A DNA stretch of 64,000 nt, from contig JAFQQQ010000002.1 in the NCBI GenBank assembly GCA_017410525.1, forward strand, positions 205,591-269,590, given 5' to 3'. The notes below the pieces were generated by a model that saw only the letters and a list, made by a program, of their open reading frames with translations, was not told the origin of the DNA and did no database searches. Positions 1,853 through 62,865 of the stretch are shown here, in pieces (position 1 is the first letter of the stretch; each line of letters starts with the position of its first letter). The position numbers and the translations under genes are program-made. This stretch comes from Bacilli bacterium (GTDB lineage Bacteria; Bacillota_I; Bacilli_A; RF39; UBA660).

Positions 1853-1942
1853 GAGATGAGAATCTCTTTTAATTTTAAATGGCGAAATATTTACTTTTTT
1901 TTATATGAGTGATATAATCTTTATAAGAATAAGGAGGTATGT

Positions 1943-3559: not shown

Positions 3560-3641
3560 TGTTAAACCACTATTTTTTTCTATTTATCAATTGATATTAA
3601 CTCTTTTCTATGATAAAATTAATAAAGAATGAAGGTGTATT

Positions 3642-5145: not shown

Positions 5146-5154
5146 GGTGATAAT

Positions 5155-6289: not shown

Positions 6290-6327
6290 GTTGCTATCTT
6301 TTTTATATAAAAATTTAATTTTATGTA

Positions 6328-9066: not shown

Positions 9067-9070
9067 TAAA

Positions 9071-35452: not shown

Positions 35453-36253
35453 ATGAAACAAAGAGTAATAAGTGCTACAGTAGCATTTGCGATCTTTATA
35501 CCAATTTTTATTATAGGAAAATTACCTTTTAATTTAGCGTTTTATGTTTTAACTCTTCTTGGCTTAAAAGAGTTTATGAAAGTTAAAGAAAAAGAAAAAA
35601 AATTTCCTGACTTTATAAGACTTATTGCATACCTTTTAATAACACTTCTTTATTTTGGATGTACTTTAGATGGTAATATGGACTTTAGTTTTGATTATAG
35701 AATGGTTGCTGGACTTTTCTTGAGCTTATTGATGCCGGTAGTTTTATATCACAATGAAAAAGTATATAATATAAAGGATGCATTTTATTTGTTAGGTGGT
35801 GTATTTTTCTTAGGTTTTTCTATGTCTTTATTTTCAATGTATAGAGCCAAAGGTTTAGATTTAATAATATTCTTATTTATGATAACTATAATTACTGATT
35901 CATTTGCTTATTTTGGTGGAAGATTAGTAGGGAAAAATAAATTGTTAGAAGTTATTTCTCCTAAGAAAACTTGGGAGGGGACCATTATAGGTAGTTTAGT
36001 AGGTACTTTTGTTTGTACAGTTTATTATTTAACCGTAATAAATCCTGATGTATCCGTGTTTGCCATTTCTATTGTCGTACTATTCTTGAGTTTAATAGGT
36101 CAATTTGGTGATTTATTCTTTTCAGCAATAAAAAGAAAATATAATGTAAAAGATTTTTCTAATATTATGCCAGGACACGGTGGAGTATTAGATAGATTGG
36201 ATAGTATTATATTTGTGATGTTAGCTTTCACATTCTTTGTAAATATTTTATAA
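35453..36253 (+). CDS. cdsA: Phosphatidate cytidylyltransferase
   Basis: Polytopic protein with the C-terminal signature SAIKRKYNVKDFSNIMPGHGGVLDRLDS. Confidence 0.9.
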   Translation: MKQRVISATVAFAIFIPIFIIGKLPFNLAFYVLTLLGLKEFMKVKEKEKKFPDFIRLIAYLLITLLYFGCTLDGNMDFSFDYRMVAGLFLSLLMPVVLYHNEKVYNIKDAFYLLGGVFFLGFSMSLFSMYRAKGLDLIIFLFMITIITDSFAYFGGRLVGKNKLLEVISPKKTWEGTIIGSLVGTFVCTVYYLTVINPDVSVFAISIVVLFLSLIGQFGDLFFSAIKRKYNVKDFSNIMPGHGGVLDRLDSIIFVMLAFTFFVNIL

Positions 36254-36266
36254 AAGGTGATTATTA

Positions 36267-37529
36267 ATGATGACAATTATATATTTTATTTTAATACTTG
36301 GAGTAACTGTTTTTATACATGAATTAGGTCATTTTGTGTTTGCTAAAAGGTACGGAGTTCATGTATATGAATTTTCTATAGGAATGGGTCCAAAATTGTT
36401 TAAGTTTAACAGAAAAAATGATGAAACAAATTATTGTATTCGTCTTTTTCCTATAGGTGGATTTGTTCAAATGGCAGGGGAAGAAGTTGAAGAAGATAAA
36501 AGTATACCTATAGAAAAGAGTTTAAGATCTAAAACTGCTTTTCAAAGATTTATGATTATGGTTGCAGGTGTAATGATGAATTTTATACTTGCTTTTGTAC
36601 TTTTATTTTTCTTAGGTTTATTTAATGATGCAAGTGTTAATAATGTTTATATAGATGGTAGTACAATTCCTAATTTAAACAATAATGACAAGATTGTAGA
36701 AGTAGATGGACACTTTGTAAATAATTACGATAAACTTGCTTTAGAATTAACTATAGCTGCTAAAAAAGATTTCAATATGGTTGTAGAAGATCCTAAAGGT
36801 AACGAAAAAGAAGTTAATGTTCATCCAATTGCTTTAGGTAAAAATGGTTTACCACATAAAAAAGATTTTGGATTTGAAGTAAATAATATAGAGATATCTA
36901 AAAGCAGTTTAAAAGAAGTAAGTGTTGGTGATACTATTGTTTCAGTTAATGGAATAAAAATAACTAACAATTTAGAACTTTTAAATGAATTGGATAAAGC
37001 AAAAGGTGAAATACTATTAACTTTAAAAGATAAAAATAATAAAGAGCGAAATGTTAAAGTAACAGTAAACGAAAATAAAGATGATGAACTATTAGGATAT
37101 AGTTATGGATTCTATATAACAGGAGAAAGAGTTAAAGGTTTATTTGGAGCGCTTAAGTATGCTTGTTTAAAATTCTTTAGTACAGTAGAACAAATGGTAT
37201 TTACAGTATTCTATTTAATTACTGGAGATATTAGTTTAAATATGTTATCAGGACCTGTTGGAATATTTAGTGTAGTAGGAGATGCAGGTAAAGCAGGATT
37301 TAGTAGTGTAATATCACTTCTATCACTAATCTGTATAAATGTAGGTTTTATTAACTTTTTACCACTCCCAGCTTTTGATGGCGGACACATATTATTTATT
37401 ATAATAGAAAAAATAAAAGGTAGTAGAGTTAATCCTAAAGTAGAAAATACAATACATAATATAGGGTTTATATTACTTATGATACTTATGGTTCTTGTAA
37501 CTTATAACGATATAATTAGAATATTTTAA
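36267..37529 (+). CDS. rseP: Site-2 zinc metalloprotease RseP/RasP
   Basis: HELGHF, PDZ-like middle region, and LPLPAFDGG near the C-terminus. Confidence 0.9.
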   Translation: MMTIIYFILILGVTVFIHELGHFVFAKRYGVHVYEFSIGMGPKLFKFNRKNDETNYCIRLFPIGGFVQMAGEEVEEDKSIPIEKSLRSKTAFQRFMIMVAGVMMNFILAFVLLFFLGLFNDASVNNVYIDGSTIPNLNNNDKIVEVDGHFVNNYDKLALELTIAAKKDFNMVVEDPKGNEKEVNVHPIALGKNGLPHKKDFGFEVNNIEISKSSLKEVSVGDTIVSVNGIKITNNLELLNELDKAKGEILLTLKDKNNKERNVKVTVNENKDDELLGYSYGFYITGERVKGLFGALKYACLKFFSTVEQMVFTVFYLITGDISLNMLSGPVGIFSVVGDAGKAGFSSVISLLSLICINVGFINFLPLPAFDGGHILFIIIEKIKGSRVNPKVENTIHNIGFILLMILMVLVTYNDIIRIF

Positions 37530-37538
37530 GGTGATTTT

Positions 37539-38438
37539 ATGTTAAAAGTAGAAAATGTAACAAAATATTATGGGGACTTTAAGGCAGTTGATAAACTGTC
37601 TTTTGAAGTAAATAAAGGAGAAATATTTGGACTTCTAGGAGTTAATGGAGCAGGTAAAACTACAACATTTAGAATGATTATGGGATTACTTGATAAAAAT
37701 GAGGGAAGTATTACTTTAGATGATAAAGAAATTGATTATTCAGTTACTGATGATATAGGTTTTTTAACTGAAGAAAGAAGTTTACTTACAAAACTTACAG
37801 TAAAAGAACAAGCAATCTATTTTGGTACTTTAAAAGGTATGAGTGATGAATCTATAATAGAAAGGCTTGATTATCTATTAAAAAAGTTTGGCATAGAAGA
37901 ATATAAAAATAAAAAGATAAAAGAATTATCTAAGGGTAATCAACAAAAAATACAATTTATAACAGCTATTCTAAACTCTCCAAAATTACTCATATTGGAT
38001 GAACCTTTCGCAGGGCTTGATCCATTTAATATTGAACTATTTAAAGAAGAAATATTAAACTTATCTAAAAAAGGGAGTATTATAATTTTCTCTTCTCATA
38101 GAATGGAACACGTAGAATTATTTTGTAAAAAATTAGCGGTCCTTGTAAATGGTAAAGCTGTATTATCAGGTAATATTAAAGATATTAAAGAAAGTTATAT
38201 GAAAAAGAATATCTTTATAAAGGGAGATGTTGAAATAGATAAGTTAAAGAATGTTAAAGGTGTTGAAGAAGTAATAGAACATTCACAAGAGTATGAAGTA
38301 AAAATATCGAGTAAAGAAGCAATACAAAATGTATTTAAATATATAAGCAAGTGTTTTAATGTGACTAAGTTTGTTGTAGAAGAACCAAGTCTAAATGAAA
38401 TATTTATTTCTAAAGTAGGTGAGTCATATGAGAAGTAA
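37539..38438 (+). CDS. ABC transporter ATP-binding protein (NatA-like)
   Basis: GVNGAGKTT, LSKGNQQK, LLILDEPF. Confidence 0.9.
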   Translation: MLKVENVTKYYGDFKAVDKLSFEVNKGEIFGLLGVNGAGKTTTFRMIMGLLDKNEGSITLDDKEIDYSVTDDIGFLTEERSLLTKLTVKEQAIYFGTLKGMSDESIIERLDYLLKKFGIEEYKNKKIKELSKGNQQKIQFITAILNSPKLLILDEPFAGLDPFNIELFKEEILNLSKKGSIIIFSSHRMEHVELFCKKLAVLVNGKAVLSGNIKDIKESYMKKNIFIKGDVEIDKLKNVKGVEEVIEHSQEYEVKISSKEAIQNVFKYISKCFNVTKFVVEEPSLNEIFISKVGESYEK

Positions 38439-39753
38439 ATTAAATTTTTTAATCAATGTTAGCCTGAAGAAAAAGATAAAATCAAAATGGTTCTTAGTTG
38501 CCAATATTGTTATAGGTTTACTTATAGTAGGACTTATAAATCTTGATAGTATAATTACTAAATTTGGTGGAGATTTTAGTGATTCTACTAAAATTTATAT
38601 ATCAGATGAAACAACTGTTATCGCACCTACATTTGAAGAAGCGCTTAATCTTTATGTAACTAATTTATATGGCATGGAAGAGTCTAAATATGAAGTAGAA
38701 ATAACAGATAAAAAATCTAATGAGATGCAGGAAACAATAAAAGACGAAGAAAATAAATCGTTGTTGATAGAAATCTATTATGATGAAAATAATGATATAA
38801 AAGCAAAATTAATTTCTTTGTCAACACTTGATACTTATGATTATCAAATTATAAGCGGTGCTTTAAATACAACAACTAGTATGTATACATTAAGTTCAAT
38901 AGGACTTACAGAAGAACAATACAATAAAATATTAAAAGGCATTGAAATAGATAGGGTTATATTGGATGAATCCATAAAAACAGAAGATGAAAATATGGAA
39001 ATGATAGTAACTACTGTATTTCCTATTATTATCTTACCATTCTTTATGTTAACTATATTCTTAATACAATTTATAGGAACTGAAGTAAACGATGAAAAAT
39101 CTACTAAGAGTATGGAAATAATAATATCTAATGTATCCCCTAAAACTCATTTTGCTTCAAAAATAATTGCTAATAATTTATTTATATTGATGCAAGTAGT
39201 ATTGATGATAATATATGCTATGGTAGGCATTGGAATAAGAAAGGTAATAGGTGGAGACAATATAATAAATGGTATAGGGACAGAAGTATCTAATATGTTT
39301 AATATGATATTGAATGGATCGTTAGGAGAAAAGTTAGTACCAATAATAATATTTACAATTATACTAATGATACTTACATTTATTGCATATTCACTTCTTG
39401 CGGGAATACTTGCATCTATGACAACTAATGCAGAAGATTATCAGCAAGTACAAGGACCTATGGTTATAATACTACTTATAGGTTATTACTTATCAATGAT
39501 AGCAGGTATGTTTGAAGGCTCTGTGCTTATTAAAATATTATCGTTTTTCCCATTTGTTTCGGCTATTCTTTCGCCGTCATTACTTGTAATGGGACAAATA
39601 GGAGTAGTTGAGATAATCATTTCTACAATAATAATGATAATAACAAACTATTTATTAATTAAATATGGTATTAGAATATACAAAGTGGGTATTTTAAATT
39701 ATTCATCTACTGGTATGTGGAAGAAAATGTTTAAGTCATTAAGAAACAAATAA
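38428..39753 (+). CDS. ABC-2 permease (NatB-like)
   Basis: An N-terminal TM, a large extracytoplasmic loop, then about 5 TM helices. ATG at 38428 preferred (AGGTGA RBS). Confidence 0.75.
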   Translation: MRSKLNFLINVSLKKKIKSKWFLVANIVIGLLIVGLINLDSIITKFGGDFSDSTKIYISDETTVIAPTFEEALNLYVTNLYGMEESKYEVEITDKKSNEMQETIKDEENKSLLIEIYYDENNDIKAKLISLSTLDTYDYQIISGALNTTTSMYTLSSIGLTEEQYNKILKGIEIDRVILDESIKTEDENMEMIVTTVFPIIILPFFMLTIFLIQFIGTEVNDEKSTKSMEIIISNVSPKTHFASKIIANNLFILMQVVLMIIYAMVGIGIRKVIGGDNIINGIGTEVSNMFNMILNGSLGEKLVPIIIFTIILMILTFIAYSLLAGILASMTTNAEDYQQVQGPMVIILLIGYYLSMIAGMFEGSVLIKILSFFPFVSAILSPSLLVMGQIGVVEIIISTIIMIITNYLLIKYGIRIYKVGILNYSSTGMWKKMFKSLRNK

Positions 39754-39822
39754 TTGTTTCTTTTTTATTGAAATCTTGGTATAATTAATTGGAAGGCGAG
39801 CGCTAAATCAGCTGTTTTTTAG

Positions 39823-39861
39823 TACTTTTTTCAAAAAAATAAAAATTTTTTGAAAAAAGTA
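39823..39861. repeat. Perfect 16-bp-stem A/T-rich palindrome upstream of the tRNA promoter
   Basis: TACTTTTTTCAAAAAA (39823-39838) pairs with TTTTTTGAAAAAAGTA (39846-39861); 7-nt loop. Confidence 0.8.
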
Positions 39862-39862
39862 T

Positions 39863-39890
39863 TGTCAAAATACGAAAATTAGGATATACT
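39863..39890 (+). promoter_or_regulatory. Promoter of the tRNA-Ile/tRNA-Glu pair
   Basis: TTGTCA (39863-39868), 16-nt spacer, TATACT (39885-39890), about 22 nt before the tRNA 5' end. Confidence 0.55.
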
Positions 39891-39912
39891 TATATAGTCA
39901 TATCTTTTTGAT

Positions 39913-39989
<77 letters not shown>

Positions 39990-40003
39990 TCTTATTAAAA
40001 TAT

Positions 40004-40080
40004 GGCCGGTTGGTGAAGCGGCTTAACACACATGCCTTTCACGCATGCATTCACGGGTCCGAATCCCGTACCGGTCACCA
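40004..40080 (+). tRNA. tRNA-Glu (anticodon UUC)
   Basis: Acceptor GGCCGGT/ACCGGTC, anticodon stem CATGC/GCATG with loop CTTTCAC, T-arm GGGTCCGAATCCC, CCA encoded. Confidence 0.9.
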
Positions 40081-40090
40081 TATGTTAATT

Positions 40091-40119
40091 AACCCTTGAT
40101 TTTCAAGGGTTTTTATTTT
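40091..40119 (+). terminator. Terminator after tRNA-Glu
   Basis: AACCCTTGA TTT TCAAGGGTT followed by TTTATTTT. Confidence 0.7.
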
Positions 40120-40254
40120 GTCGTTTGAGTTTTGGTCTTGTTTTTGGTCTTGTAACTCGTTTTTTTTTTGAACTTTTTTATTTCCTTTTGTCAATATAAA
40201 ATAAAAAACGAAAAAAACATTGAAAAAAAGATCAAAAATATAGAAGTTTTTAAA

Positions 40255-40351
40255 TGGTGACCGGTAAGAAACCCGGACCCACTTATAGCTATAGTGAATA
40301 CCTGCGTGAGTGTGTGTTAAGATTTGATAAAATAAATTGACCTCTCGCTTA
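40255..40351 (-). repeat. Inverted, internally deleted, decayed copy of the tRNA-Ile(3' half)/tRNA-Glu pair (copy 1)
   Basis: The reverse complement reads TAAGCGAGAGGTC...CTTAACACACACTCACGCAGGTATTCAC...GGGTCCGGGTTTCTTACCGGTCACCA. This aligns block by block with 39949-40080 (TAAGCGTGAGGTC...CTTAACACACATGCCTTTCACGCATGCATTCACGGGTCCGAATCCCGTACCGGTCACCA). Confidence 0.75.
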
Positions 40352-40418
40352 TTTAAAAAAAGTTGATATTTTTTTCTTTTGTGATATAATATAAGAAATT
40401 TTTGTAGGGGGATAATTT

Positions 40419-40700
40419 ATGAAAGAAATCACGTTTTATAGAACATATAGTTATGGTGGTATGGAAGGTAGAAACAAAGAAGTGAGAAATTTTGAAACAG
40501 TAGAGTTAGCTGTTCAAGATGCTCTTAAAGATACTTGGAATGACCAATTTAAATTATATAAAGTAAAAATGATATTTGATGGAAAAATAACAGAAGAAGA
40601 AAAGTACATAGAACCTTTAGTGTGTGGTAGAGATTTAATTTCTGATAATCCATTGAATAAATTAAATTTAGAATCTTTAACTAAACCAAAAAGAAAATAG
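40419..40700 (+). CDS. Hypothetical protein (island ORF)
   Basis: 93-aa ORF with a GGGGGA RBS and an upstream TTGATA...TATAAT promoter. No family recognised. Confidence 0.5.
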   Translation: MKEITFYRTYSYGGMEGRNKEVRNFETVELAVQDALKDTWNDQFKLYKVKMIFDGKITEEEKYIEPLVCGRDLISDNPLNKLNLESLTKPKRK

Positions 40701-40784
40701 TGTTGTATCTTGATTTTTAGATTTTATTTAGTAGTTAACGTTTGTCAAAAAATTTTTAAAAAAACATAAAAAGGAGTTTCTGTA

Positions 40785-41345
40785 ATGAAAGAAAAATTAT
40801 TTAATACAAGTGATGGTATAAAATATAAATTCTCAAGATTTTATATTATTAAAAATAATTATTTATTTAGTACTAGTAATGCTAATTTAGGTCATAATTT
40901 AAAAACTTGTTGTTGTATAAAAAAGTTAGGTTCAAATGTTCGTCCTAAAATTTATTTAGATATAAAAAAGGATAATAAGATAATCATGAAAAACAAACTT
41001 ATAGGTGATTACCAAGCATTAATGGATTTTATAGTGGAACACCAGAATGATTTTATATTTATAAAAGGTTTTAGTAGAGCTAGTATGGCTGAATTTATAG
41101 CAATGCTTAATATCAAAAAGCAGATGAATATTAAACCTGTAAAATTTAAAAATAAAATATTAGAGGCACAATACGAAAGACATTTACTAACAAAAGAACA
41201 ACGCATTGAAGAATTAAATAAAAAATTAGAAAATGGCGCAGAAGTTGATAGTGCTGAGCAATATATGAAAATTACCAATTCAGTATTTGGTATAAATAGA
41301 TATAAGTCTAGACAAAAAATTATACAATTAAGAAAAAATAGTTAG
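40785..41345 (+). CDS. Hypothetical protein (island ORF)
   Basis: 186-aa ORF with an AAAGGAG RBS and a lysine-rich C-terminal helical region. No family recognised. Confidence 0.5.
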   Translation: MKEKLFNTSDGIKYKFSRFYIIKNNYLFSTSNANLGHNLKTCCCIKKLGSNVRPKIYLDIKKDNKIIMKNKLIGDYQALMDFIVEHQNDFIFIKGFSRASMAEFIAMLNIKKQMNIKPVKFKNKILEAQYERHLLTKEQRIEELNKKLENGAEVDSAEQYMKITNSVFGINRYKSRQKIIQLRKNS

Positions 41346-41541
41346 GCTAAATAACTATTTTTTGTTTTAGTCTTATTTTGGTCTTGTGGTTTGGTCTTGT
41401 AAATGGTTACTATTTGTTAAAATTATCAAAATAAACAGTAACAAAAAATGATAAAACAGTAACACGAAATCCCTTTGTTTTTAAGGCAATATGGCATTAG
41501 CCCTTTATTTTCAATAATTTTCTAAAAATAGAAGTTCACAT

Positions 41542-41558
41542 TCCCGTACCGGTCACCA
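41542..41558 (+). repeat. Direct repeat of the tRNA-Glu 3' end (candidate attR-type scar)
   Basis: TCCCGTACCGGTCACCA is identical to 40064-40080. The flanks are also related (TTCAC before; TATGTTAATTA versus TTTATGAATTA after). Confidence 0.8.
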
Positions 41559-41605
41559 TTTATGAATTAGAAACCATTTTATATGGTTTTTTTCTTTATA
41601 TAATT

Positions 41606-41709
41606 GTGAACGCATTGCGTGGTGTGAGTGATTAAGCCTTATATGGTTTTGAGTAAGTATTAATACTAAAATAACTGAATGGAATGAACCTGAATAGACC
41701 TCTCGCTTA
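41606..41709 (-). repeat. Inverted decayed copy of tRNA-Ile 3' half plus tRNA-Glu 5' part (copy 2)
   Basis: The reverse complement reads TAAGCGAGAGGTCTATTCAGGTTCATTCCATTCAG...GGCTTAATCACTCACACCACGCAATGCGTTCAC. The genuine sequence is TAAGCGTGAGGTCGATGGTTCAAGTCCATTCAG...GGCTTAACACACATGCCTTTCACGCATGCATTCAC. It shares the T->A change with copy 1. Confidence 0.7.
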
Positions 41710-41771
41710 AATTAATAATTTATGTTATAATTAAATTGTCATATAAATGATAAGTTGTAAGGAGGAAATAC

Positions 41772-42419
41772 ATGAATAATACTATAGTAACATATGAAAC
41801 ATTCCATGGAAGTGCGAAGAAGATAGCTAATATAATTTCTGATAAATTAAATTGCAAATGTATTAATATAGATACACCTTTTGAAGCTGAAGATTTAAAA
41901 GAAATAGATAATATAATATTAGTATTTAACTTTAGAGGGCCATATACTGCTCAATTAACTAAATTATATTTAAATAGAGTTAAAGAACAGTTAAAAAATA
42001 AAAATGTAATTTTAGTAGGTGAAGGATTATTTTCAGAAAAAGAATTCCCTGTAGTAGCAGATGAAATATACAAAAATAACCCATCAAAAACATTTAACAA
42101 ATTTTTTGTTAATGGACAATTAAGAATGGAAACATTATTTCCAGAAGAAAGAGCTCTACTTAAAAAGTTTAGTGAAATAACTGGTATGGAAATAAAAGAT
42201 ATGGGAGAACTTGATTTGAAGAAAGCAGAAGAAGTTGCTAATGAAATTGAAAGATTGATTGAAACGGATGAATTTAAGACTCCAATAGAAAATGAAACAA
42301 ATGAAAATCAAGGAACAAAGTGGGTTTGTCCAGTATGTGGGTATATCCACTATGGAGATAATCCACCAGAAAAATGTCCTTTGTGTGGAGTACCTAAAGA
42401 ACTTTTTAGAAAAGAATAA
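41772..42419 (+). CDS. Flavodoxin-like domain protein with a C-terminal rubredoxin-type zinc/iron ribbon
   Basis: N-terminus IVTYETFHGSAKKIA (flavodoxin-like). C-terminus WVCPVCGYIHYGDNPPEKCPLCG (CxxC...CxxC rubredoxin knuckles). Confidence 0.6.
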   Translation: MNNTIVTYETFHGSAKKIANIISDKLNCKCINIDTPFEAEDLKEIDNIILVFNFRGPYTAQLTKLYLNRVKEQLKNKNVILVGEGLFSEKEFPVVADEIYKNNPSKTFNKFFVNGQLRMETLFPEERALLKKFSEITGMEIKDMGELDLKKAEEVANEIERLIETDEFKTPIENETNENQGTKWVCPVCGYIHYGDNPPEKCPLCGVPKELFRKE

Positions 42420-42471
42420 AAAAAGTTTGAATAATTAAAATATAAGTAGTATAATTTAATTATTCTTTTAT

Positions 42472-42546
42472 TGCCCCATAGCCAAGCGGTAAGGCAGTGG
42501 ACTCTGACTCCAATATGCGAAAGTTCGAATCTTTCTGGGGCAACCA
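42472..42546 (+). tRNA. tRNA-Gln (anticodon CUG)
   Basis: TGCCCCATAGCCAAGCGGTAAGGCAGTGGACTCTGACTCCAAT...TGGGGCAACCA. The anticodon loop is CTCTGAC. Confidence 0.9.
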
Positions 42547-42549
42547 AGT

Positions 42550-42636
42550 GCAAGAATGGCGGAATTGGTAGACGCACTACTTTGAGGGGGTAGTGACTAT
42601 ATGGTCGTGGGAGTTCAAGTCTCCTTTCTTGTACCA
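42550..42636 (+). tRNA. tRNA-Leu (anticodon GAG), long variable arm
   Basis: GCAAGAATGGCGGAATTGGTAGACGC..., anticodon loop TTGAGGG, variable arm GTGACTATATGGTCGT, T-arm GGGAGTTCAAGTCTCC, CCA encoded. Confidence 0.85.
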
Positions 42637-42638
42637 AT

Positions 42639-42712
42639 GCTGATTTAGTTTAGTGGTAAAACAAAAGCATGGTAAGCTTTAGAGGACTGTTCAATTCAGT
42701 CATTCAGCACCA
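42639..42712 (+). tRNA. tRNA-Thr (anticodon GGU)
   Basis: GCTGATTTAGTTTAGTGGTAAAAC..., anticodon stem AAGC/GCTT with loop ATGGTAA, T-arm GACTGTTCAATTCAGTC, CCA encoded. One T-T mismatch in the acceptor stem. Confidence 0.75.
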
Positions 42713-42717
42713 CTTTT

Positions 42718-42791
42718 GGGAAACTTGCTCAATTGGTTAGAGCGCTTGCTTGACGTGCAAGAGATCAAGGGTTCGAGTCCTATGTTTCTCA
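42718..42791 (+). tRNA. tRNA-Val (anticodon GAC), CCA not encoded
   Basis: GGGAAACTTGCTCAATTGGTTAGAGCG, anticodon stem CTTGC/GCAAG with loop TTGACGT, T-arm AGGGTTCGAGTCCT. The 3' end is ...GTTTCTCA followed by CTA. Confidence 0.8.
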
Positions 42792-42815
42792 CTATTATTT
42801 TTAACCCTTAAACAC

Positions 42816-56305: not shown

Positions 56306-57166
56306 ATGTTAGAAAAAATAGATTTGTTAAAAATTGATGGTTTTAAAAATCATCCTTATAAAGTTAATGATGATGAATCTTTAAAAGAACTTGCAAGTAG
56401 TATTAAAGAAAATGGATTGCTGAATCCTTTAATAGTAAGATTAAAGTCAAATGGTAGATATGAACTAATATCAGGACATAGAAGAAAAAAAGCAATGGAG
56501 TCAATAGGAATATCAGAAGCGGAAGTATATGTAAAAAAATTGTCTGACGAAGAAGCTACGATAGAAATGGTTGATTCTAATATGTACAGAGAAAAAGTTT
56601 TACCATCAGAAAAAGCGTTTGCATATAAAATGAAATTAGAAGCATTAAAGCATCAAGGTAAATCTTTGTCCCCTAAGGGAACTAAATCTCATACGGTAGA
56701 TGAAATAGATGATACAAAAACTCAAATTTATAGATATGTAAGATTGACTTATTTAATCCCAGAATTATTACAATTAGTTGATGATACTGTTTTAAAGGAC
56801 AAAAGAGCAGTTTTAACGATGGGTTTAAAACCAGCGGTAGAATTATCATATTTAACAAAAGAAGAGCAAAAATTGGTATATATGGGGATTACATACGAGG
56901 ATTTAACTCCAAGTCATGCTCAAACAATAGAAATAAGAAAATTAAGTAAATCAAAAAAATTGGATTTTAATAGTTTAGAAGATATTTTATGTCAAAAAAA
57001 AGGAAATCAAAACGATCAAATATCATTTAATAAAGATAAAATAGAATCGGTTTTACCAACAGAATTATTGAAAAGAGATAAAAGATATATTGAACGATAT
57101 ATAATAAAAGCAATTATAGAGTATAAAAAAATGAAAATTGTTGAAGAAGATGAATTGGATTTTTAA
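56306..57166 (+). CDS. ParB/Srx-fold N-terminal domain protein (ParB-like nuclease family)
   Basis: NPLIVRLKSNGRYELISGHRRKKAM (ParB box GxRR) followed by a helical C-terminus. Confidence 0.75.
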   Translation: MLEKIDLLKIDGFKNHPYKVNDDESLKELASSIKENGLLNPLIVRLKSNGRYELISGHRRKKAMESIGISEAEVYVKKLSDEEATIEMVDSNMYREKVLPSEKAFAYKMKLEALKHQGKSLSPKGTKSHTVDEIDDTKTQIYRYVRLTYLIPELLQLVDDTVLKDKRAVLTMGLKPAVELSYLTKEEQKLVYMGITYEDLTPSHAQTIEIRKLSKSKKLDFNSLEDILCQKKGNQNDQISFNKDKIESVLPTELLKRDKRYIERYIIKAIIEYKKMKIVEEDELDF

Positions 57167-57190
57167 ATAAAGTAAAGAAAGGGTGATAAT

Positions 57191-58015
57191 ATGGTTTTTA
57201 AGGTGGAAAAAAATAAGAATTATACAGTAATGAGTAATTACCATTTGAGAGATAAAAACTTATCTTTGAAAGCAAAAGGCTTATTATCATTTATGCTTAG
57301 TTTACCAGATGATTGGGATTACTCATTAAATGGTTTATGTTCTATATGTAAAGAATCTGAAGGAGCAATAAAAAGTACATTAAAAGAGTTAAAAGATAAT
57401 GGATATTTGGTTATAGAAAAAGTACGAGGGGAAAAGGGATATTTTGAATATAACTATATTATTTATGAACATCCATATACATTAGAAAAGGAGAAAAACA
57501 ATCCAGAGGGTAAAAATCCACCTGTGGATTATCCAATGGTGGAAAATCATACCCAAATAAATACTAATGAACAAAGTATTAAAGAACAAATAGATAGAAT
57601 AGATAAAACCATAAATGAAGATGAGGAAAAAATTTCTTCATCTTTTTCTTTAGAAGAACATCACGCTATAACTAAAGATTTAGTTGAAAGAGAATATTTA
57701 GCAGAAGATGATGTAGAACTATACAAGTATGATAAATTTTTTAAGGAAATTTTAAAAAAACAAAAATTTACTGATGTAATTTCTATAACTCACTATATTA
57801 TTTCTAGTGTTAAAAGTCGGCATTTTATAGATGAGTTTGATAATAAGATAGAGAATAAATTTGGATATTTAAAAACATCAATTGAAAATAATATTGAAAT
57901 GTTTAAAAGACGTGAAATAGAATGGGATGATGAATTAGGATGGTTTAGGGAAGTGGATAACGATGATAAAGAATTAGATTCTTTTTATGACGATTTTGAT
58001 TATGAAATAACATAA
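57191..58015 (+). CDS. Replication-initiator-like winged-helix protein (HTH_36/RepA_N-like N-terminus)
   Basis: YTVMSNYHLRDKNLSLKAKGLLSFMLSLPDDWDYSLNGL...LKELKDNGYLVIEKVR matches the pattern common in element-borne Rep/DnaD-like proteins. The family name is from memory. Confidence 0.6.
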   Translation: MVFKVEKNKNYTVMSNYHLRDKNLSLKAKGLLSFMLSLPDDWDYSLNGLCSICKESEGAIKSTLKELKDNGYLVIEKVRGEKGYFEYNYIIYEHPYTLEKEKNNPEGKNPPVDYPMVENHTQINTNEQSIKEQIDRIDKTINEDEEKISSSFSLEEHHAITKDLVEREYLAEDDVELYKYDKFFKEILKKQKFTDVISITHYIISSVKSRHFIDEFDNKIENKFGYLKTSIENNIEMFKRREIEWDDELGWFREVDNDDKELDSFYDDFDYEIT

Positions 58016-58046
58016 AAAAAGACTAAAATCAGTCTTTAGGAATATG

Positions 58047-58445
58047 TTACTTCTCAATCAATTTTTCGGCAAAACTATGTAGCATTTCAAGGTTTATATC
58101 GCTTAAATTTTTTGCGATTTCAAATATGCTATATAAATTTGAATTTTTTCTGATAATGATGGCATCAACATTTTTTAAGTCATCTTCAGAAAATGTACTT
58201 CCAGTCTGGTTAAATATAGCTTCTTTTAATTGAAAAGAATCTCTAAAACCTAAACCTTTACTAATTTTTTTTAATGTTATACTGCTTATGTTACCGCTAT
58301 GCTTTTTAGACTCTAAATCATTAATTACCATTCTTGAAATTTCGCATTTATCTGCAAATTCTCTAGCACTCATCGTTGGATGAAATGATTTACGATAATT
58401 ATTAATGTAAGAGCCAAGTGCATCTACAAATGCTTTGTCTTCCAT
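58047..58445 (-). CDS. XRE-family HTH regulator (divergent from the downstream + strand genes)
   Basis: MSAREFADKCEISRMVINDLESKK HTH. A minus-strand gene facing a 436-bp divergent control region. Confidence 0.65.
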   Translation of the reverse strand: MEDKAFVDALGSYINNYRKSFHPTMSAREFADKCEISRMVINDLESKKHSGNISSITLKKISKGLGFRDSFQLKEAIFNQTGSTFSEDDLKNVDAIIIRKNSNLYSIFEIAKNLSDINLEMLHSFAEKLIEK

Positions 58446-58687
58446 ATCCTATCGCCTTTCTTTTGTTCTTTTACTACATTACCATTTTACACTTTTTTTG
58501 AATTTTTGTCCACATAACGCTATGAAATTCATTTTTAAAAAATTAAATTATGAAAATGGACATTTTTAATATTATTTGTTATGATAATAATGTAGTAAAT
58601 AGTCTTTAAAAAAATATGGGAGGATAGAAATGTTTAAATCAAAACTTGTGATGCTTTCATTTCTGACCAAAGAAAGGAGGAGCAAGA

Positions 58688-58855
58688 TTGCAAGAGCAAG
58701 AAGGTTCTAATGTTGTTAAAAGCATCAAGATTGAAGTGATAAGTGGGGAAAAAAAAGGTGTAAACTTATTAACGCAGTTTAGTGAGGTAGAAACAATTAG
58801 AATATTAAAGCAGTGTCTTATATCGTTAGAAAGGGAGGCATCACAAAACCAGTAG
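58688..58855 (+). CDS. Possible small ORF (55 aa, TTG start)
   Basis: My translation is MQEQEGSNVVKSIKIEVISGEKKGVNLLTQFSEVETIRILKQCLISLEREASQNQ, with RBS AAAGGAGGAGCAAGA. A competing 26-codon ATG ORF (58630-58710, RBS GGGAGGA) overlaps it. Confidence 0.35.
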   Translation: MQEQEGSNVVKSIKIEVISGEKKGVNLLTQFSEVETIRILKQCLISLEREASQNQ

Positions 58856-58881
58856 TACCGATTAAGGAAGGAAAATGATAT

Positions 58882-59193
58882 ATGACTAAAGAAAGTAATG
58901 AAGTAGTATCAGAAGTAAATGCAGTAATTAGTAGTATTAGAAGTAAGGTTCAACAAGAAGAAAAAATTACAGTAGATGAAATTGATAATTTATCTACTAC
59001 TGTTAATCAACTAATCACTGATTATAGAACAGTATTAAATGACTATCTTGTAATGAACTCTTTAGCAGTAAAACATGATAAGTTTTTAGAAGTAATTGGT
59101 ATTATAGAATTTGCTTCTGCAAATGATGTTAGAATTTTAGATCAAACAATTAAATCCTTAGAAAAGGTTGTTAAAACAATAAAGCAGAGGTAA
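58882..59193 (+). CDS. Hypothetical helical protein
   Basis: 103-aa ORF with RBS AAGGAAGGAA. Terminator ACTGTGTGGA/TCTACACAGT plus T-run at about 59203-59238. Confidence 0.55.
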   Translation: MTKESNEVVSEVNAVISSIRSKVQQEEKITVDEIDNLSTTVNQLITDYRTVLNDYLVMNSLAVKHDKFLEVIGIIEFASANDVRILDQTIKSLEKVVKTIKQR

Positions 59194-59282
59194 ATAAAAT
59201 ATACTGTGTGGAAAAAAATTCTACACAGTTTTATTTTTGGATATTGACATTTATAAAAAAATAATGTATCCTTTTATTGTAA

Positions 59283-59302
59283 GTGGCAGTTCAAACTGAC
59301 AC
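59283..59302. repeat. Palindrome-containing site, left member of an inverted pair
   Basis: GTGGCAGTTCAAACTGACAC matches the reverse complement of 59520-59539 at 18 of 20 positions. It is embedded in a 10-bp outer inverted repeat, CTTTTATTGT (59271-59280) / ACAATAAAAG (59301-59310). Confidence 0.75.
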
Positions 59303-59519
59303 AATAAAAGAAGGAGGGGATTGAAAAATTTGTAATAGGAGAGAGGTATAGAGTTTTTAATGAAGTATCCGAAAATCATGGAAACTATCTCACAATTATC
59401 AACATAAATAAAGACTTAATATATTATTTATTTGATGGTAGCGATCAGGTTCAATGTTTTTCAAGTAGTAGTGAATTTGCAGTTGACCTTATTAAGTTGG
59501 TCTAATTTTTTTAAAATAA

Positions 59520-59539
59520 CTGTCAGTTTGAACTGACAC
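59520..59539. repeat. Palindrome-containing site, right member, just upstream of the 59553 ORF RBS
   Basis: CTGTCAGTTTGAACTGACAC. The core GTCAGTTTGAACTGAC is a perfect 16-bp palindrome. Confidence 0.75.
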
Positions 59540-59552
59540 GAAAGGAACTACG

Positions 59553-59813
59553 ATGAAAAAAATTAAGAAAGAAAGATCAGTACCAAAATGGGTTTTACGA
59601 AATCTACGATTGTATGGGAATTGTTGTTGTGGATACGATTTAATAAAAAAATATGGTGAAAAGAAATTATTAGAAAAATTAGTTAAATTTGGATTTGAAT
59701 GTAGTTTAAGAGTTGTACCAGATCCAGATGCAAGAACAAGAAGAAAAATGAAATATCCACCATCAGCTTACTATATTTTAGAAGTTGATAAGGTACTGAT
59801 TACTAACAAATAA
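59553..59813 (+). CDS. Hypothetical 86-aa protein in the antitoxin position upstream of MazF
   Basis: MKKIKKERSVPKWVLRNLRLYGNCCCGYDLIKKYGEKKLLEKLVKFGFECSLRVVPDPDARTRRKMKY... Its stop TAA (59811-59813) abuts the MazF TTG start. I can see no AbrB/RHH/MazE-like pattern. Confidence 0.55.
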   Translation: MKKIKKERSVPKWVLRNLRLYGNCCCGYDLIKKYGEKKLLEKLVKFGFECSLRVVPDPDARTRRKMKYPPSAYYILEVDKVLITNK

Positions 59814-60194
59814 TTGTTTTTATCAGTAAAGAAAGGTGAAGTTTATTTAATCGATTTGAAGGATACATATTCAAATGTCCAATGTGGGAAAAGACCTTGT
59901 TTAGTCATTCAAAACGATTATGGTAATGAATATTCACCGACAACAATAGTAGTTCCCATTACAACAAAAATTAAGAAGACTTATATGCCTGTTCATGTAG
60001 TTATTGAAAAGGGAAGTTATTCTAATAAGGATCGAGAAATGGTTTTATGTGAATGTATCTTAACAGTATCAAAAGATCAAATAATTAATCATTTAAGAAC
60101 TTTTGATGAAGATACGATGCAGAAAATTGATAAGGCTTTAGAAGTATCATTAGGAATTGGCGTGAAAGGGAGGAATCAAAAATTAAAAAGTTAA
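59814..60194 (+). CDS. mazF: MazF/PemK-family endoribonuclease toxin
   Basis: KKGEVYLIDLKDTYSNVQCGKRPCLVIQNDYGNEYSPTTIVVPITT matches the PemK signature. The TTG start is translationally coupled to the upstream ORF. Confidence 0.8.
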   Translation: MFLSVKKGEVYLIDLKDTYSNVQCGKRPCLVIQNDYGNEYSPTTIVVPITTKIKKTYMPVHVVIEKGSYSNKDREMVLCECILTVSKDQIINHLRTFDEDTMQKIDKALEVSLGIGVKGRNQKLKS

Positions 60195-60265
60195 AAGAGA
60201 CGTATAATGATATTTTTAGTAAAGGTATTGAAAATTATTGGAAGTCTGAAGGTTGTAATAGTAGG

Positions 60266-60832
60266 ATGCAAAAATACTTTAAATTTGCAAACTTACTAGA
60301 TAGTATTAATGTAGTTTTAAAATATATAATGATTATTTGTCTTAATATTATTGCAACAATGACAATTTTTAAACTATCTTCAGGAATTTATTTGACAGAA
60401 ATGGTTAAAGAAACAACAACTTTAACTGTAATGGATATTATTTTTCAACAAGGAGGCTTTATAGTTATTGGTTGTTTATATTTTGTTTTAGGGTTAAGAT
60501 ACGGAAAACGAAATAAAGACAGTTTTGGTAAGATAATGTATAAAGTTTTATATGGTATGCCAATGTATTATTTAATATATCTAAATATGTGTTTGATGGA
60601 TGGTTTAACAGGAATAATGATATTCTTAATTCTTTATTTAATTATTGTTAATATAAACTTTTTAATAAGTAAAAGAATAAAAGAGTTATATAATGTTGCA
60701 ACAGGTAATATTGGAACAGAAGAATATGAAAAAGAATTAGAAGAAGTAGATGTAGTATTTACAAAACAAGAAGTTGAAAATAAGGATAATAAAAAAGGAA
60801 GAGGAGATAAAAAATATGCAAGGAAGCGTTAA
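60266..60832 (+). CDS. Hypothetical membrane protein (about 4 TM) with a charged C-terminal tail
   Basis: Hydrophobic segments [42 protein letters not shown] and [18 protein letters not shown]. No family recognised. Confidence 0.5.
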
Positions 60833-61037
60833 ATGGTTTAGTGATAAATTAGGATATGGATTTATTGTTTGTGAAGATTTAGATGAGGAAGTATTTGTTC
60901 ATTTTAGCGAAATACAAATGGATGGATATAAGTCTTTAAAAGAAGGAGATATTGTAAGTTTTGATTATGACACAGAAGTTGGAAAAGCTAAAAATGTCAA
61001 TGTTATCAAAAATGAAAAGTTAGAAACTTCTAAGTAG
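60816..61037 (+). CDS. csp: Cold-shock protein (CspA family)
   Basis: [50 protein letters not shown] (RNP1-like KGYGFI, RNP2-like VFVHF). ATG at 60816 preferred (GGAAGAGGAG RBS). Confidence 0.85.
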
Positions 61038-61507
61038 TGAATTTTATTGGTGCAGTAGTGCATTATTCCGTTGACTGTGTAGATGAATCTAAAACAGCAG
61101 AAAACGGAAGAGAAATTTGTAGTCAGTATAGACCACTTGTAGAAAAAAGAATTAAAAGATTATTAGCAACACCAATGAACTCTGCAAGTATTGTACTTTT
61201 TACATCTGGAAATAGAAGTAAAAATTCTTTTGAAGAAAAACTAATACAAAGAGTTGCTTGGAATGATGATCAGATAACTAATTTTATGAATAACATTTTG
61301 TTATTAGAACAATATGATAAAATGGCAGGTTTATATTTGAAACTTAAATATATTTATGATAAAACTGATAAACAAATTGCAAAAAAAATGAAAGTAACAG
61401 ATAGAACTTTAAGAACTTATAAAACAAGGGCGTATTTTCAAATTGCAGTGTGGTCTAATAAAGTTGAATATATTTATAACAAAACTTTTCATTTTAATAT
61501 TGATTGA
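61037..61507 (+). CDS. Sigma-70 region-4-like HTH protein (element-type sigma/regulator)
   Basis: C-terminus KTDKQIAKKMKVTDRTLRTYKTRAYFQIA resembles a sigma region 4.2 HTH. GTG start abuts the csp stop. Confidence 0.5.
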   Translation: MNFIGAVVHYSVDCVDESKTAENGREICSQYRPLVEKRIKRLLATPMNSASIVLFTSGNRSKNSFEEKLIQRVAWNDDQITNFMNNILLLEQYDKMAGLYLKLKYIYDKTDKQIAKKMKVTDRTLRTYKTRAYFQIAVWSNKVEYIYNKTFHFNID

Positions 61508-61563
61508 TATATTTGATGTGGAAATATCCACATCCTGCTACATACAAAGGAGTTGAATATTTT

Positions 61564-62712
61564 ATGAAAAAAAGAAATATTTTAATTATTAGTGCATTAA
61601 TAGTAGTATTAGTATCTATTGGTATATATTTATTTATACAACATACAAATAAAATAACTTTAAAGGAATCTAATTTTATTTTTGAACTTGGGGATAAAGT
61701 TCCTTTTGAAGTTGAATATTATTTAAAAGATAAGGATAAAGATAAAATATCAAATTCAAAAATAAGATTTGAAAATGATGCAATGTTTGATACTTCAAAC
61801 AATGAAATTAGAACAATAGATTCAAAGTTTTTAGATGTTGGAAAATATAAAATGTATATTGAGTATAAGGATACTAAGTATCACTTTAATATTAAAGTGA
61901 AAGATACAACAGCACCTAATTTTATTGATTTTATGGATGAAATTATATTAGAACAAAATGCTGTAAATGTAGATTTGTTAAAATATTATGAAGCATCTGA
62001 TTTAAGTAGTTTAACGATAAGCATTGAAAGTGATTATGATATTGAAAAAACTGGTGAATATAAAGCAATAATTAAATCTAAAGATGTTTATGATAATATA
62101 GTTACAAAAGATGCAACAATTAAAGTAATTTCTTATGATGATTTAAAAAATACAGAAGTAACGAAATGCTTAGATGGTACAATATTTAAAAGTGAAAAAA
62201 GAATTGAATCAGAAAAGAAAAAAATAGAAACTAATCAATCTAGTTCTAATAATAATACAACCCCTAAAATAGAAATAGTTGATAATAACAACAATAGTAA
62301 TAATTCAAAGAATGAATCAAATAACAATAGTTCTAGTTCATCATCTAATAATACTCCAACTATTGTTAATGCTACATATAGAACAGATATTTCAAATGAA
62401 ATAGTAAATAAGATAAATGAATATCGTAAAAATAATGGTCAAACTGTGTTACCTGTAACTTCTGAAGCACAAGCTGAAGCTGACAGGAGAGCAAAGGAAA
62501 TTGTATCAAATCCTACTCATGAAGGTTCTTCTTATGGTTTTGGGGAAAATATAGGTGGAGGAGGAATTGGTACTGATTTCTTCACATTATGGAAAGAAAG
62601 TTTTTCCCACAATAACGCAATGTTAAGAGAGCAAAATACAGCAATAGCAGTAAGTATATATCAATATAATAATCAATGGTATGCAGTTGCTGTTTTTAGA
62701 ATGAATTATTAA
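61564..62712 (+). CDS. Membrane-anchored secreted protein with a C-terminal CAP/SCP (YkwD-like) domain
   Basis: N-terminal TM (ILIISALIVVLVSIGIYLFI), a middle beta-rich region, an Asn/Ser low-complexity linker, then YRKNNG...AEADRRAKEI...HEGS...GENIG...WKESFSHNNAML. ATG at 61564 preferred (AAGGAG RBS). Confidence 0.7.
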   Translation: MKKRNILIISALIVVLVSIGIYLFIQHTNKITLKESNFIFELGDKVPFEVEYYLKDKDKDKISNSKIRFENDAMFDTSNNEIRTIDSKFLDVGKYKMYIEYKDTKYHFNIKVKDTTAPNFIDFMDEIILEQNAVNVDLLKYYEASDLSSLTISIESDYDIEKTGEYKAIIKSKDVYDNIVTKDATIKVISYDDLKNTEVTKCLDGTIFKSEKRIESEKKKIETNQSSSNNNTTPKIEIVDNNNNSNNSKNESNNNSSSSSSNNTPTIVNATYRTDISNEIVNKINEYRKNNGQTVLPVTSEAQAEADRRAKEIVSNPTHEGSSYGFGENIGGGGIGTDFFTLWKESFSHNNAMLREQNTAIAVSIYQYNNQWYAVAVFRMNY

Positions 62713-62747
62713 AATTTCTCAATATGGGAAATTTTTTTATGCAAGAA

Positions 62748-62769
62748 ATTATGTGGAATTCCACATAAT
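62748..62769. repeat. Perfect 22-bp palindrome ATTATGTGGAATTCCACATAAT
   Basis: Read directly and self-complementary over 62748-62769. Half-site TTATGTGGAA recurs at 62792-62806 and, inverted, at 62844-62858. Confidence 0.85.
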
Positions 62770-62791
62770 ATTTTTTATGTAGAACTTTTAG

Positions 62792-62858
62792 TTATGTGGA
62801 ACTTTTATAAAAAACATCTTGTAATTAAGGCGTTTCTATTATAAAAAGTTCCACATAA
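62792..62858. repeat. 15-bp perfect inverted repeat pair TTATGTGGAACTTTT / AAAAGTTCCACATAA, 37 bp apart, abutting the recombinase gene 3' end
   Basis: 62792-62806 and 62844-62858 are exact reverse complements. Confidence 0.85.
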
Positions 62859-62865
62859 TTTTTTT

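Follow-up and report, generated by a model that had tools for sequence, protein, structure and literature searches.

Inverted tRNA-Ile/tRNA-Glu fragments as likely relics of tRNA-targeted recombination at a gene-exchange hotspot in uncultured gut Bacilli

Downstream of an intact tRNA-Ile/tRNA-Glu pair, an uncultured gut Bacilli bacterium carries two broken versions of the same pair, both on the opposite strand. What are these fragments, and by what events did they come to lie there? The locus is part of a 64,000-nucleotide stretch of DNA, here called the window (GTDB lineage RF39, UBA660; assembly GCA_017410525.1, contig JAFQQQ010000002.1, positions 205,591–269,590). The live pair consists of tRNA-Ile (GAT) at 39913–39989 and tRNA-Glu (TTC) at 40004–40080, both on the plus strand and both found by ARAGORN and Rfam (71.9 bits for tRNA-Ile with the Rfam tRNA model). 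Copy 1 (psi1, 40254–40351) and copy 2 (psi2, 41606–41709) lie on the minus strand and were compared with the live pair at 39913–40080. To place them in context, we used the membrane protease RseP, encoded upstream of the locus, as an anchor to gather a ladder of related contigs, which are labelled L followed by a number. Identical and related contigs came solely from animal-gut metagenomes and metagenome-assembled genomes labelled Bacilli or Clostridia bacterium. We consider it likely, with moderate confidence, that both copies are fossils of tRNA-targeted site-specific recombination at a gene-exchange hotspot, formed by two separate routes: copy 1 would have arrived on a small insertion in tRNA-Glu, and copy 2 would belong to an older operon cut within tRNA-Ile.

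The resemblance of the two segments to the live pair, reported in a preliminary description of the locus, holds up in formal alignment. Copy 1 has a local score of 46 (500 shuffles: mean 15.5, standard deviation 2.1, maximum 27) and copy 2 a score of 37 (shuffles: mean 16.6, standard deviation 2.4, maximum 28); the similarity, 9–14 standard deviations above the shuffles, is significant. Every sequence block listed in that description is reproduced in MAFFT alignments: TAAGCG(A)GAGGTC and CTTAAC..CACGC..TTCAC are present in both copies, the tRNA-Ile T-arm and the spacer in copy 2 only, and GGGTCCG..TACCGGTCACCAT in copy 1 only. Within the 64 kb, GACCTCTCGCTTA has two exact occurrences and a third, with one mismatch, in the live gene, against 0.29 expected; TACCGGTCACCA occurs three times, against 0.01 expected. 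The fragments keep their position in at least eight related contigs. Both copies start at the same spot within the tRNA-Ile anticodon loop, and each adjoins a promoter and a gene, as had been described: P1 follows copy 1 and P2 follows copy 2.

Neither segment is a tRNA gene in its present form. ARAGORN calls no tRNA in 40254–40351 or 41606–41709, and Rfam at E≤10 gives no match to tRNA or any other RNA family in either copy. Both are without a complete acceptor stem and four arms; their fold z-scores are −2.0 and −0.4, and neither is cloverleaf-shaped, in agreement with the earlier failure to fold them. A scan for minus-strand promoters revealed no convincing promoter reading into copy 1 or copy 2. 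The idea that antisense tRNA-like transcripts are made thus finds no positive support, there being no tRNA fold, no RNA family and no convincing minus-strand promoter. The other tRNAs of the window, in which ARAGORN detects seven in all, have no comparable fragments. We regard the two inverted copies as confirmed to be genuine but non-functional tRNA-gene fragments.

The preliminary description attributed both copies to duplication and inversion of a local tRNA module. For copy 1 this is not the case: it came on an insertion that is absent from L006, L382 and L384. The insertion, which we call E (1,478 bp, 40082–41559, plus strand), has no integrase and lies in the 3′ end of the live tRNA-Glu gene. 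It is flanked by a direct repeat of 18 nucleotides, identical at 18/18 positions and extending to 28 nucleotides at 89% identity according to a repeat finder. The left repeat (attL core, 40064–40081, plus strand) comprises the last 17 nucleotides of tRNA-Glu and one further base. The right repeat, TCCCGTACCGGTCACCAT (attR core, 41542–41559, plus strand), was missed earlier; it is a second tRNA-Glu 3′ end, spanning the end of the T-loop through CCA and one base, and has one mismatch in L008. Two relatives provide the empty site. In L006, whose flavodoxin gene is 98% identical to that of the window, and in L382, whose RseP is 95% identical, the tRNA-Glu end (GGTCACCAT, CCGGTCACCAT) runs straight into TTATGAATTAGAAACC with nothing between them. 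In the window, TTATGAATTAGAAACC is the sequence 3′ of position 41559. Because both relatives join tRNA-Glu directly to the sequence following 41559, the segment 40082–41559 is an insertion. The gene spacing in L384 is that of the empty-site relatives. Tyrosine integrases that target tRNA genes typically leave an insertion bounded by direct repeats of the tRNA 3′ end (Islander, PMC4383910), and such an enzyme, targeting the tRNA-Glu 3′ end, would have placed the insertion with copy 1 as part of its left arm.

The insertion has repeat-bearing arms. The order from left to right is a terminator hairpin (40091–40111), kept in L004, L008, L390 and L398; two TTGGTCTTGT repeats (40132–40153); copy 1; the promoter P1 (TTGATA-16-TATAAT with TG, 40363–40390, 11/12 consensus positions); two cargo genes, ORF93 (93 amino acids, 40419–40700) and ORF186 (186 amino acids, 40785–41345); two further TTGGTCTTGT repeats (41378–41400) with a degenerate extra copy at 41363–41376; two direct repeats containing AAACAGTAAC (41433–41470), identical in the window, L004 and L008; and the right core. 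All of these features except copy 1 are on the plus strand. The four exact TTGGTCTTGT copies in the 64-kb window all fall within the two arms and in one orientation, an arrangement that attP arm-type sites would be expected to show after integration; they are candidate arm-type recombinase-binding sites. Their number varies: L004 has one more in the right arm, and L390 has four copies of AGTCTTGTAA. The arm signature of the insertion family consists of GGTCTTGTAA repeats, the AAACAGTAAC pair and the tRNA-Glu core.

Copy 1 itself comprises a pseudo tRNA-Ile 3′ half and a pseudo tRNA-Glu through its 3′ end, with an internal deletion that removed the Ile T-arm through the Glu D-arm. Orthologues that lack the identical stretch are found within the insertions of L004, L008 and L390, and L398 has a more decayed fragment of E type. 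Within the family the arms are kept and the cargo changes. The arms of the L008 insertion are 84–90% identical to those of the window and enclose two unrelated ORFs of 144 and 262 amino acids; L390 and L398 have an E-type left arm with its own decayed copy 1, followed by yet other cargo. The variable part sets in directly behind GACCTCTCGCTTA(T), where copy 1 has its end in the anticodon loop.

Two small-scale features of the family are recorded here. A 14-nucleotide piece of the pseudo tRNA-Glu T-arm, TAAGTGGGTCCGAA, has opposite orientations in L004 and the window versus L390 and L008; the micro-inversion site lies at about 2975–3005 of L004 and at 10908–10931 of L390, with a break at the TTCAC/GGG junction, and in the window and L004 this junction holds a small palindromic filler. 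In L398, a more G+C-rich, structured-looking leader at 8985–9089 (GTGCGCCCAGACAAGGG...GCAGTAGCGAGTCTTGTGC) lies 3′ of the promoter that follows the copy-1 homologue, with the contig ending behind it, and could be a riboswitch or other leader RNA.

The only ORFs of at least 50 amino acids in the insertion are ORF93, ORF186 and an 89-residue antisense ORF overlapping ORF186. Pfam, PADLOC, NCBIfam and PHROGs gave no function and no recombinase domain for ORF93 or ORF186, the sole match being a marginal PHROG for ORF93. ORF186 has homologues in 32 clusters, all metagenomic and none functionally named (two are annotated 'hypothetical protein'). One homologue lies inside a canonical 9.9-kb island of L027, which has a tRNA-Ser, an integrase and a 60-nucleotide displaced tRNA-Ser fragment; another stands alone in L024. 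The homologues of ORF186 are accessory genes. A phmmer search with the L027 island integrase against all ORFs of the window gave no match.

Taken together with the empty sites, these features suggest that the insertion is a decayed or non-autonomous element of the kind called CIME, which is defined by the retention of att sites and the loss of integration and transfer genes (PMC5704250). The insertion fits this definition because its att sites are kept and integration genes are lost. It also keeps both att repeats and the repeat-bearing arms, without a recombinase, at an accretion-prone tRNA 3′ end. It differs in being very small and in having conserved arms with differing cargo; a CIME would also be expected to descend from an ICE or IME and to be mobilized by a helper element that supplies the integrase, and no related autonomous element was found in the collections searched. 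The excised circle is predicted to contain the junction ...AAATAGAAGTTCACAT-TCCCGTACCGGTCACCAT-ATGTTAATTAACCC.... Viral contigs scanned for the arm-repeat pattern gave no match; two 14-mers from the fragment end had 120 and 110 chance matches in the same collection, none of them locus-like by BLAST. A metagenome scan with the AAACAGTAAC repeat pair returned only unrelated sequences among the matches listed.

How, then, is copy 2 related to copy 1? The preliminary description took a T-to-A change present in both as a sign that they are closer to each other than to the live genes. Over 46 shared columns in the window, copy 1 has an identity of 0.78 with the live gene and of 0.72 with copy 2; across homologues, the identity of copy 1 is 0.63–0.83 to copy 2 and 0.78–0.85 to the live genes. 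Copy 1 is therefore no nearer to copy 2 than to the live genes. The T-to-A change is not a shared decay mutation, because GCGAG is the live tRNA-Ile allele in L394, and T still stands at this position in the copy-2 homologues of L391 and L397. All copy-1 homologues have one internal deletion in common, and copy-2 homologues share derived bases of their own. What the two copies do have in common is the endpoint in the anticodon loop, the loss of the Ile acceptor 3′ strand, a gap of 4–5 nucleotides in the Glu anticodon arm, and a layout of tRNA-Glu end, hairpin, inverted pseudo-pair, promoter and variable gene. These common features suggest that the insertion family has in copy 1 its own counterpart to copy 2, and that the insertion resembles the region 3′ of tRNA-Glu from another lineage that may have been mobilised as an island.

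Copy 2 consists of a pseudo tRNA-Ile 3′ half, the spacer and a pseudo tRNA-Glu up to TTCAC. It keeps the Ile T-arm and the Glu 5′ part and is without the Ile acceptor 3′ strand and all of Glu beyond TTCAC, that is, the T-arm and 3′ end. Homologues are present in L004, L006, L008, L382, L391 and L394, and on the other strand in L397. Copy 2 follows the terminator hairpin of tRNA-Glu down to relatives whose RseP is 73–78% identical (L391, L394). Judged from its presence in relatives with RseP 70–78% identical, copy 2 is evidently much older than the insertion, and it is chromosomal.

The missing half of the copy-2 tRNA-Ile lies on the other side of the live operon. At 39794–39814 on the minus strand is a pseudo tRNA-Ile 5′ half that runs from the D-loop to the anticodon loop, its promoter and 5′ acceptor strand deleted. 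Its reverse complement, CAGCTGATTTAGCGCTCGCCT, aligns to the live CAGCTGGTTAGAGCGCACGCCT with a score of 22, which the best of 1000 shuffles only ties (mean 11.2, standard deviation 1.8). The half occupies the same place in L006, L008, L391 and L394, and the opposite side and strand in L397. It lies just left of a perfect, 100% complementary palindrome of 16 nucleotides (arms 39823–39838 and 39846–39861), which is kept in relatives. The right arm of the palindrome directly adjoins the −35 hexamer of the promoter of the live operon (TTGTCA-17-TATACT, 39862–39890, plus strand), itself nearly invariant across all relatives. This palindrome is the symmetry centre between the pseudo-Ile 5′ half and the live promoter. 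A second symmetry centre, between the live tRNA-Glu and copy 2, is the hairpin followed by a T-run at 41571–41589 (plus strand), which is the native terminator of the tRNA operon in the empty-site relatives and directly follows tRNA-Glu in L006, L382, L391 and L394. The module therefore reads pseudo-Ile 5′ half (minus strand), palindrome, live promoter, tRNA-Ile, tRNA-Glu, hairpin, pseudo-Glu and pseudo-Ile 3′ half (minus strand), and in the window the later insertion breaks this order after the live tRNA-Glu. From these alignments, copy 2 and 39794–39814 are shown to correspond to two parts of a second, opposite-strand tRNA-Ile/tRNA-Glu operon. This second operon is complete in outline; its cut lies in the Ile anticodon loop, and its parts are circularly permuted around the live one so that the cut ends point outward. 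A pairing of CTCGC in the pseudo 5′ half with GCGAG in the 3′ half of the window looked compensatory and was dropped, as L006 and L008 have CACAC with GCGAG.

In L397 (contig source ERZ27302875; RseP 70% identical), the whole arrangement is turned around. With the direction of RseP taken as plus, the minus strand holds the live tRNA-Glu and tRNA-Ile and the plus strand the copy-2 homologue, which neighbours RseP; beyond the live promoter lies AGCTGGTTAGACCACGCGCCT, a 5′ half of tRNA-Ile that stops in the anticodon loop. Positions 6295–6774 of L394 align to the reverse complement of 6293–6765 of L397 with 420/503 identical positions, and the RseP end and the downstream gene of the two contigs align forward. 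By this alignment, a module of about 0.45 kb is inverted in L397 between the same flanking genes. The earlier suggestion of an inversion at this locus therefore survives in part: the module is inverted in L397, and the two copies of the window are not the product of one duplication and inversion. The two orientations are seen only in different lineages, L397 versus L391, L394 and the window. The module ends have only short, imperfect inverted repeats of about 9 nucleotides, a by-product of the self-complementary anticodon stem and AT-rich flank. No invertase gene adjoins the module, which borders RseP or an ABC transporter at one end and cargo genes at the opposite end. Possible target-site duplications near the module ends (AATTAAT in the window, TTTTATA in L397) were not used; their offsets vary, and such 7-mers are common at 25% G+C.

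No single inversion rejoins the two halves, so a closed inverted dimer is the simplest formal description; the module would formally be such a dimer of the operon, opened at one anticodon loop. A circle integrating through a site inside its own gene would leave an inverted-dimer module opened at the Ile anticodon loop. The second operon would have been dead after the cut and would then have decayed by deletions that took its promoter, the acceptor strand of Ile and, from Glu, the 3′ end and part of the anticodon arm. The inverted dimer of a 0.2-kb operon could itself stem from a recombinase, from hairpin-capped intermediates or from template switching at the two palindromes. The recombination between att-like sites proposed in the preliminary description remains the best account of the fragment boundaries, namely the 3′ end of tRNA-Glu and the anticodon loop of tRNA-Ile. 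For tRNA-targeting tyrosine integrases the anticodon loop is a classical site of crossover, and it is reportedly a preferred one of one integrase class (Williams 2002, cited in PMC9897764).

The locus also behaves as a site of gene exchange. Right of copy 2, the extended −10 element TGTTATAAT of P2 (41723–41731, plus strand) precedes a gene that encodes a fusion of Flavodoxin_5 and rubredoxin-like domains (41772–42419, plus strand), the variable cargo of this position. A 253-residue, restriction-enzyme-like ORF replaces it in L391 and L394, and a 247-residue ORF in L397 at this position aligns with that one. Exchange across lineages is seen in L004, where 1223–5359 corresponds to 36267–42636 of the window. 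RseP is 66% identical in protein and 73% in DNA, whereas from tRNA-Ile to tRNA-Leu, insertion included, DNA identity is 96–99.6%. We take this contrast as proof, at the level of sequence comparison, that a tRNA-flanked block has been exchanged between divergent lineages.

What else could have produced the fragments? Chance or low-complexity resemblance is extremely improbable. The region has a G+C content of 25–28% and the single blocks are short, but the alignment scores given above, the threefold occurrence of G+C-rich 12- and 13-mers expected 0.01–0.29 times and the conserved position in related contigs all argue against it. A replication error, in which fold-back or template switching at the two palindromes formed the module and the polymerase turned at the Ile anticodon stem-loop, is unlikely. 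Both symmetry centres are true palindromes, no recombinase is nearby, and the palindromic T-arm junction of copy 1, with its 14-nucleotide piece flipped between L004 and L390, has traits typical of template switching. However, two independent fold-backs would need to end in one 7-nucleotide loop, a module found in both orientations between fixed flanks is not a fold-back outcome, and the neighbouring insertion shows that site-specific integration is active at the same operon. We give very little weight to integration of the insertion family as folded single-stranded DNA, with the direct and inverted Glu 3′ ends forming a hairpin site as in CTX phage (PMC3442271) or integron cassettes. The two ends are inverted, 172 nucleotides apart, and pair in single-strand folds (z = −4.4); such a fold arises from any inverted repeat, the inverted end has decayed in L004, in L008 and L390 it is missing or flipped, and the insertion has no rolling-circle or filamentous-phage genes. 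Finally, it is doubtful that the module of about 0.45 kb is a self-contained cassette able to move or invert, or was one until recently, in the form of an inverted-dimer minicircle recombining through its own tRNA-Ile anticodon loop. Were this true, the live tRNA operon could be placed either way round, its junction would be where accessory genes swap (the flavodoxin gene, the restriction-enzyme-like ORF, ORF93 and ORF186), and the pseudo-halves would stay more alike than neutral sites as working recombination sites.

A function that keeps the fragments in place, whether as promoter-upstream or insulator DNA, as a stem in read-through RNA with the tRNAs or as antisense tRNA-like RNAs, seems improbable as well. 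In its favour, copy 2 holds derived bases across relatives with near-saturated synonymous sites, GACCTCTCGCTTA occupies the −35/UP position of both P1 and P2, and the live tRNA-Glu end pairs with copy 1 in the single-strand fold mentioned above, although its partner is decayed in L004. The rates of change point the other way. Among close relatives the body of copy 2 is 81–86% identical and the least conserved of the local segments compared; the terminator is 91–96% and the promoter segment 41697–41771 is 88–100% identical. With L006, copy 2 changes as fast as or faster than fourfold sites of the flavodoxin gene (86% versus 90%). The Glu 3′ part of copy 1 differs between the window and L004 at 10/27 positions, although the promoter next to it and the ORFs show 99.6% identity. 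The gene downstream of the module stays in place in L397, with the opposite end of the module facing it; the fragment end is therefore not essential to that gene's promoter. The absence of a tRNA-like fold, an RNA family match and a strong minus-strand promoter argues in the same direction. The decay rate of copy 2, the divergence of copy 1 and the arrangement in L397 favour neutral relics, and the fragments would now be only junction DNA beside the promoters of exchangeable accessory genes.

Several observations weigh against fossils of site-specific recombination as the explanation. Copy 2 of the window is 0.85 identical to that of L394, where fourfold sites of RseP and CdsA are at about 0.55. 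Pure neutral decay does not fit this similarity unless the block spread laterally or is under some constraint; a spread such as that of the tRNA-flanked block in L004 can explain the excess, and a residual role of the fragments as recombination sites is conceivable. Neither a full-length relative of the insertion nor a circular or attP form came up in the viral contigs or among the metagenome matches listed, and no integrase acting on the tRNA-Glu or tRNA-Ile site was identified. The only recombinase gene in the window, an Xer-like gene at 62866–63867, is 21 kb away and unlinked. The inverted state is known from the single contig L397; a search for a second contig led to the closest RseP relative (P0093), which ends 33 nucleotides after RseP. 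We know of no precedent for a circle of about 0.45 kb made of just two tRNA operons.

Known systems account for parts of the locus. Circularly permuted tRNA genes of the red alga Cyanidioschyzon, said to have been described by Soma et al. in 2007, are reportedly functional, with a short linker and processing motifs. As in L397, their 3′ half is said to precede the 5′ half, both on one strand; the halves here are decayed, about 400 nucleotides apart with live genes between them, and promoterless. Displaced tRNA fragments mark island ends (Williams 2002; Islander, PMC4383910). Such an island end is recognisable in the direct tRNA-Glu 3′ repeat at 41542–41559, at the far end of an insertion that relatives lack with a precise empty site, and the inverted fragments have their boundaries at the two places within tRNA genes that integrases classically use, in the anticodon loop and at the T-loop/3′ end. 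No integrase lies inside the insertion. A canonical island leaves only a direct 3′ fragment, unlike copies 1 and 2, which are inverted and span two genes, copy 2 having its 5′ half across the operon. When an element recombines at a site within one of its own genes (SSV-type, or "suicidal", integration), two pseudogene halves that face outward remain (PMC7253208). The topology here is the same, with two halves of one orientation at the ends of the segment and cut ends outward, and L397 is the mirror image. The differences are that the split gene is tRNA-Ile and not an integrase, that the segment is no virus or plasmid but, apart from the later insertion, holds the live tRNA operon only, and that the hosts are bacteria and not hyperthermophilic archaea. 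In Thermococcus, integrases catalyse inversions between att and non-att sites, tRNA genes included (PMC5495485), and tRNA fragments may land on the opposite strand after inversion (PMC9897764). Those inversions likewise have tRNA-derived breakpoints and intact and partial copies on opposite strands, but they cover tens to hundreds of kilobases versus about 0.45 kb here, where partial copies bracket an intact operon. The island end at this locus follows the textbook. The split operon, permuted and with its module found in both orientations, is an unusual variant that departs from the standard footprint of an island.

The surroundings of the locus are variable in further respects. The window has a G+C content of about 25% and its genes are nearly all on the plus strand. 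CdsA (35453–36253) and RseP (36267–37529) precede the locus, followed by a pair of ABC-2 transporter genes (37539–39753) that is present in the window, L382, L390 and L398 and absent from L004, L391, L394 and L397. Downstream of the tRNA pair the order is ORF93, ORF186, the flavodoxin-rubredoxin fusion gene and a P-type ATPase gene. The tRNA cluster at 42472–42792, found by ARAGORN and Rfam, is Gln(CTG)-Leu(GAG)-Thr(GGT)-Val(GAC) in the window. It holds only Gln and Leu in L004, L008, L391 and L394, Gln, Leu and Thr in L006, and Gln and Thr(CGT) in L397; in L382, Val lies 2.7 kb further on after extra genes. Because its content varies, a second variable boundary lies right of the flavodoxin gene. 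In more distant relatives, flavodoxin-rubredoxin genes are found 3′ of tRNA-Ala/Ile (L017 248–763, L018 5636–6001) and tRNA-His (L007 1497–1705). In L017, the last 14–16 nucleotides of tRNA-Ile recur twice behind the gene in direct orientation (473–488 and 578–591), and these are tandem att remnants. The recurrence beside tRNA genes and these remnants make the flavodoxin-rubredoxin gene seem to be island cargo.

Six contigs (L383, L385, L386, L389, L392 and L393) end within or just after tRNA-Ile or tRNA-Glu, as expected if assembly graphs branch there, at hotspot strain variation or at further copies of tRNA-Ile. Far from the locus, 56306–63867 is a block of mobile-element-type genes: ParB_N (56306–57166), HTH_36 (57191–58015), HTH_3 (58047–58445, minus strand), a MazF/PemK toxin (59814–60194) and the Xer-like tyrosine recombinase (minus strand), which matches Pfam Phage_integrase at 7e-39 and falls below the NCBIfam cut-offs for XerC and XerD. 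The block is probably another integrated element.

For annotation, tRNA look-alikes inverted beside live tRNA genes can serve as a record of past recombination; those of this locus appear to point to a precise mini-island in tRNA-Glu and to an older cut within the anticodon loop of tRNA-Ile. In these little-known, uncultured gut Bacilli, a tRNA-flanked block moves between organisms whose RseP is 66% identical, and units of a promoter and a gene are swapped at the fragment boundaries. If an active recombination system were at work, the locus would represent a new way to move or flip a tRNA operon; otherwise, it would be a well-documented, ordinary fossil.

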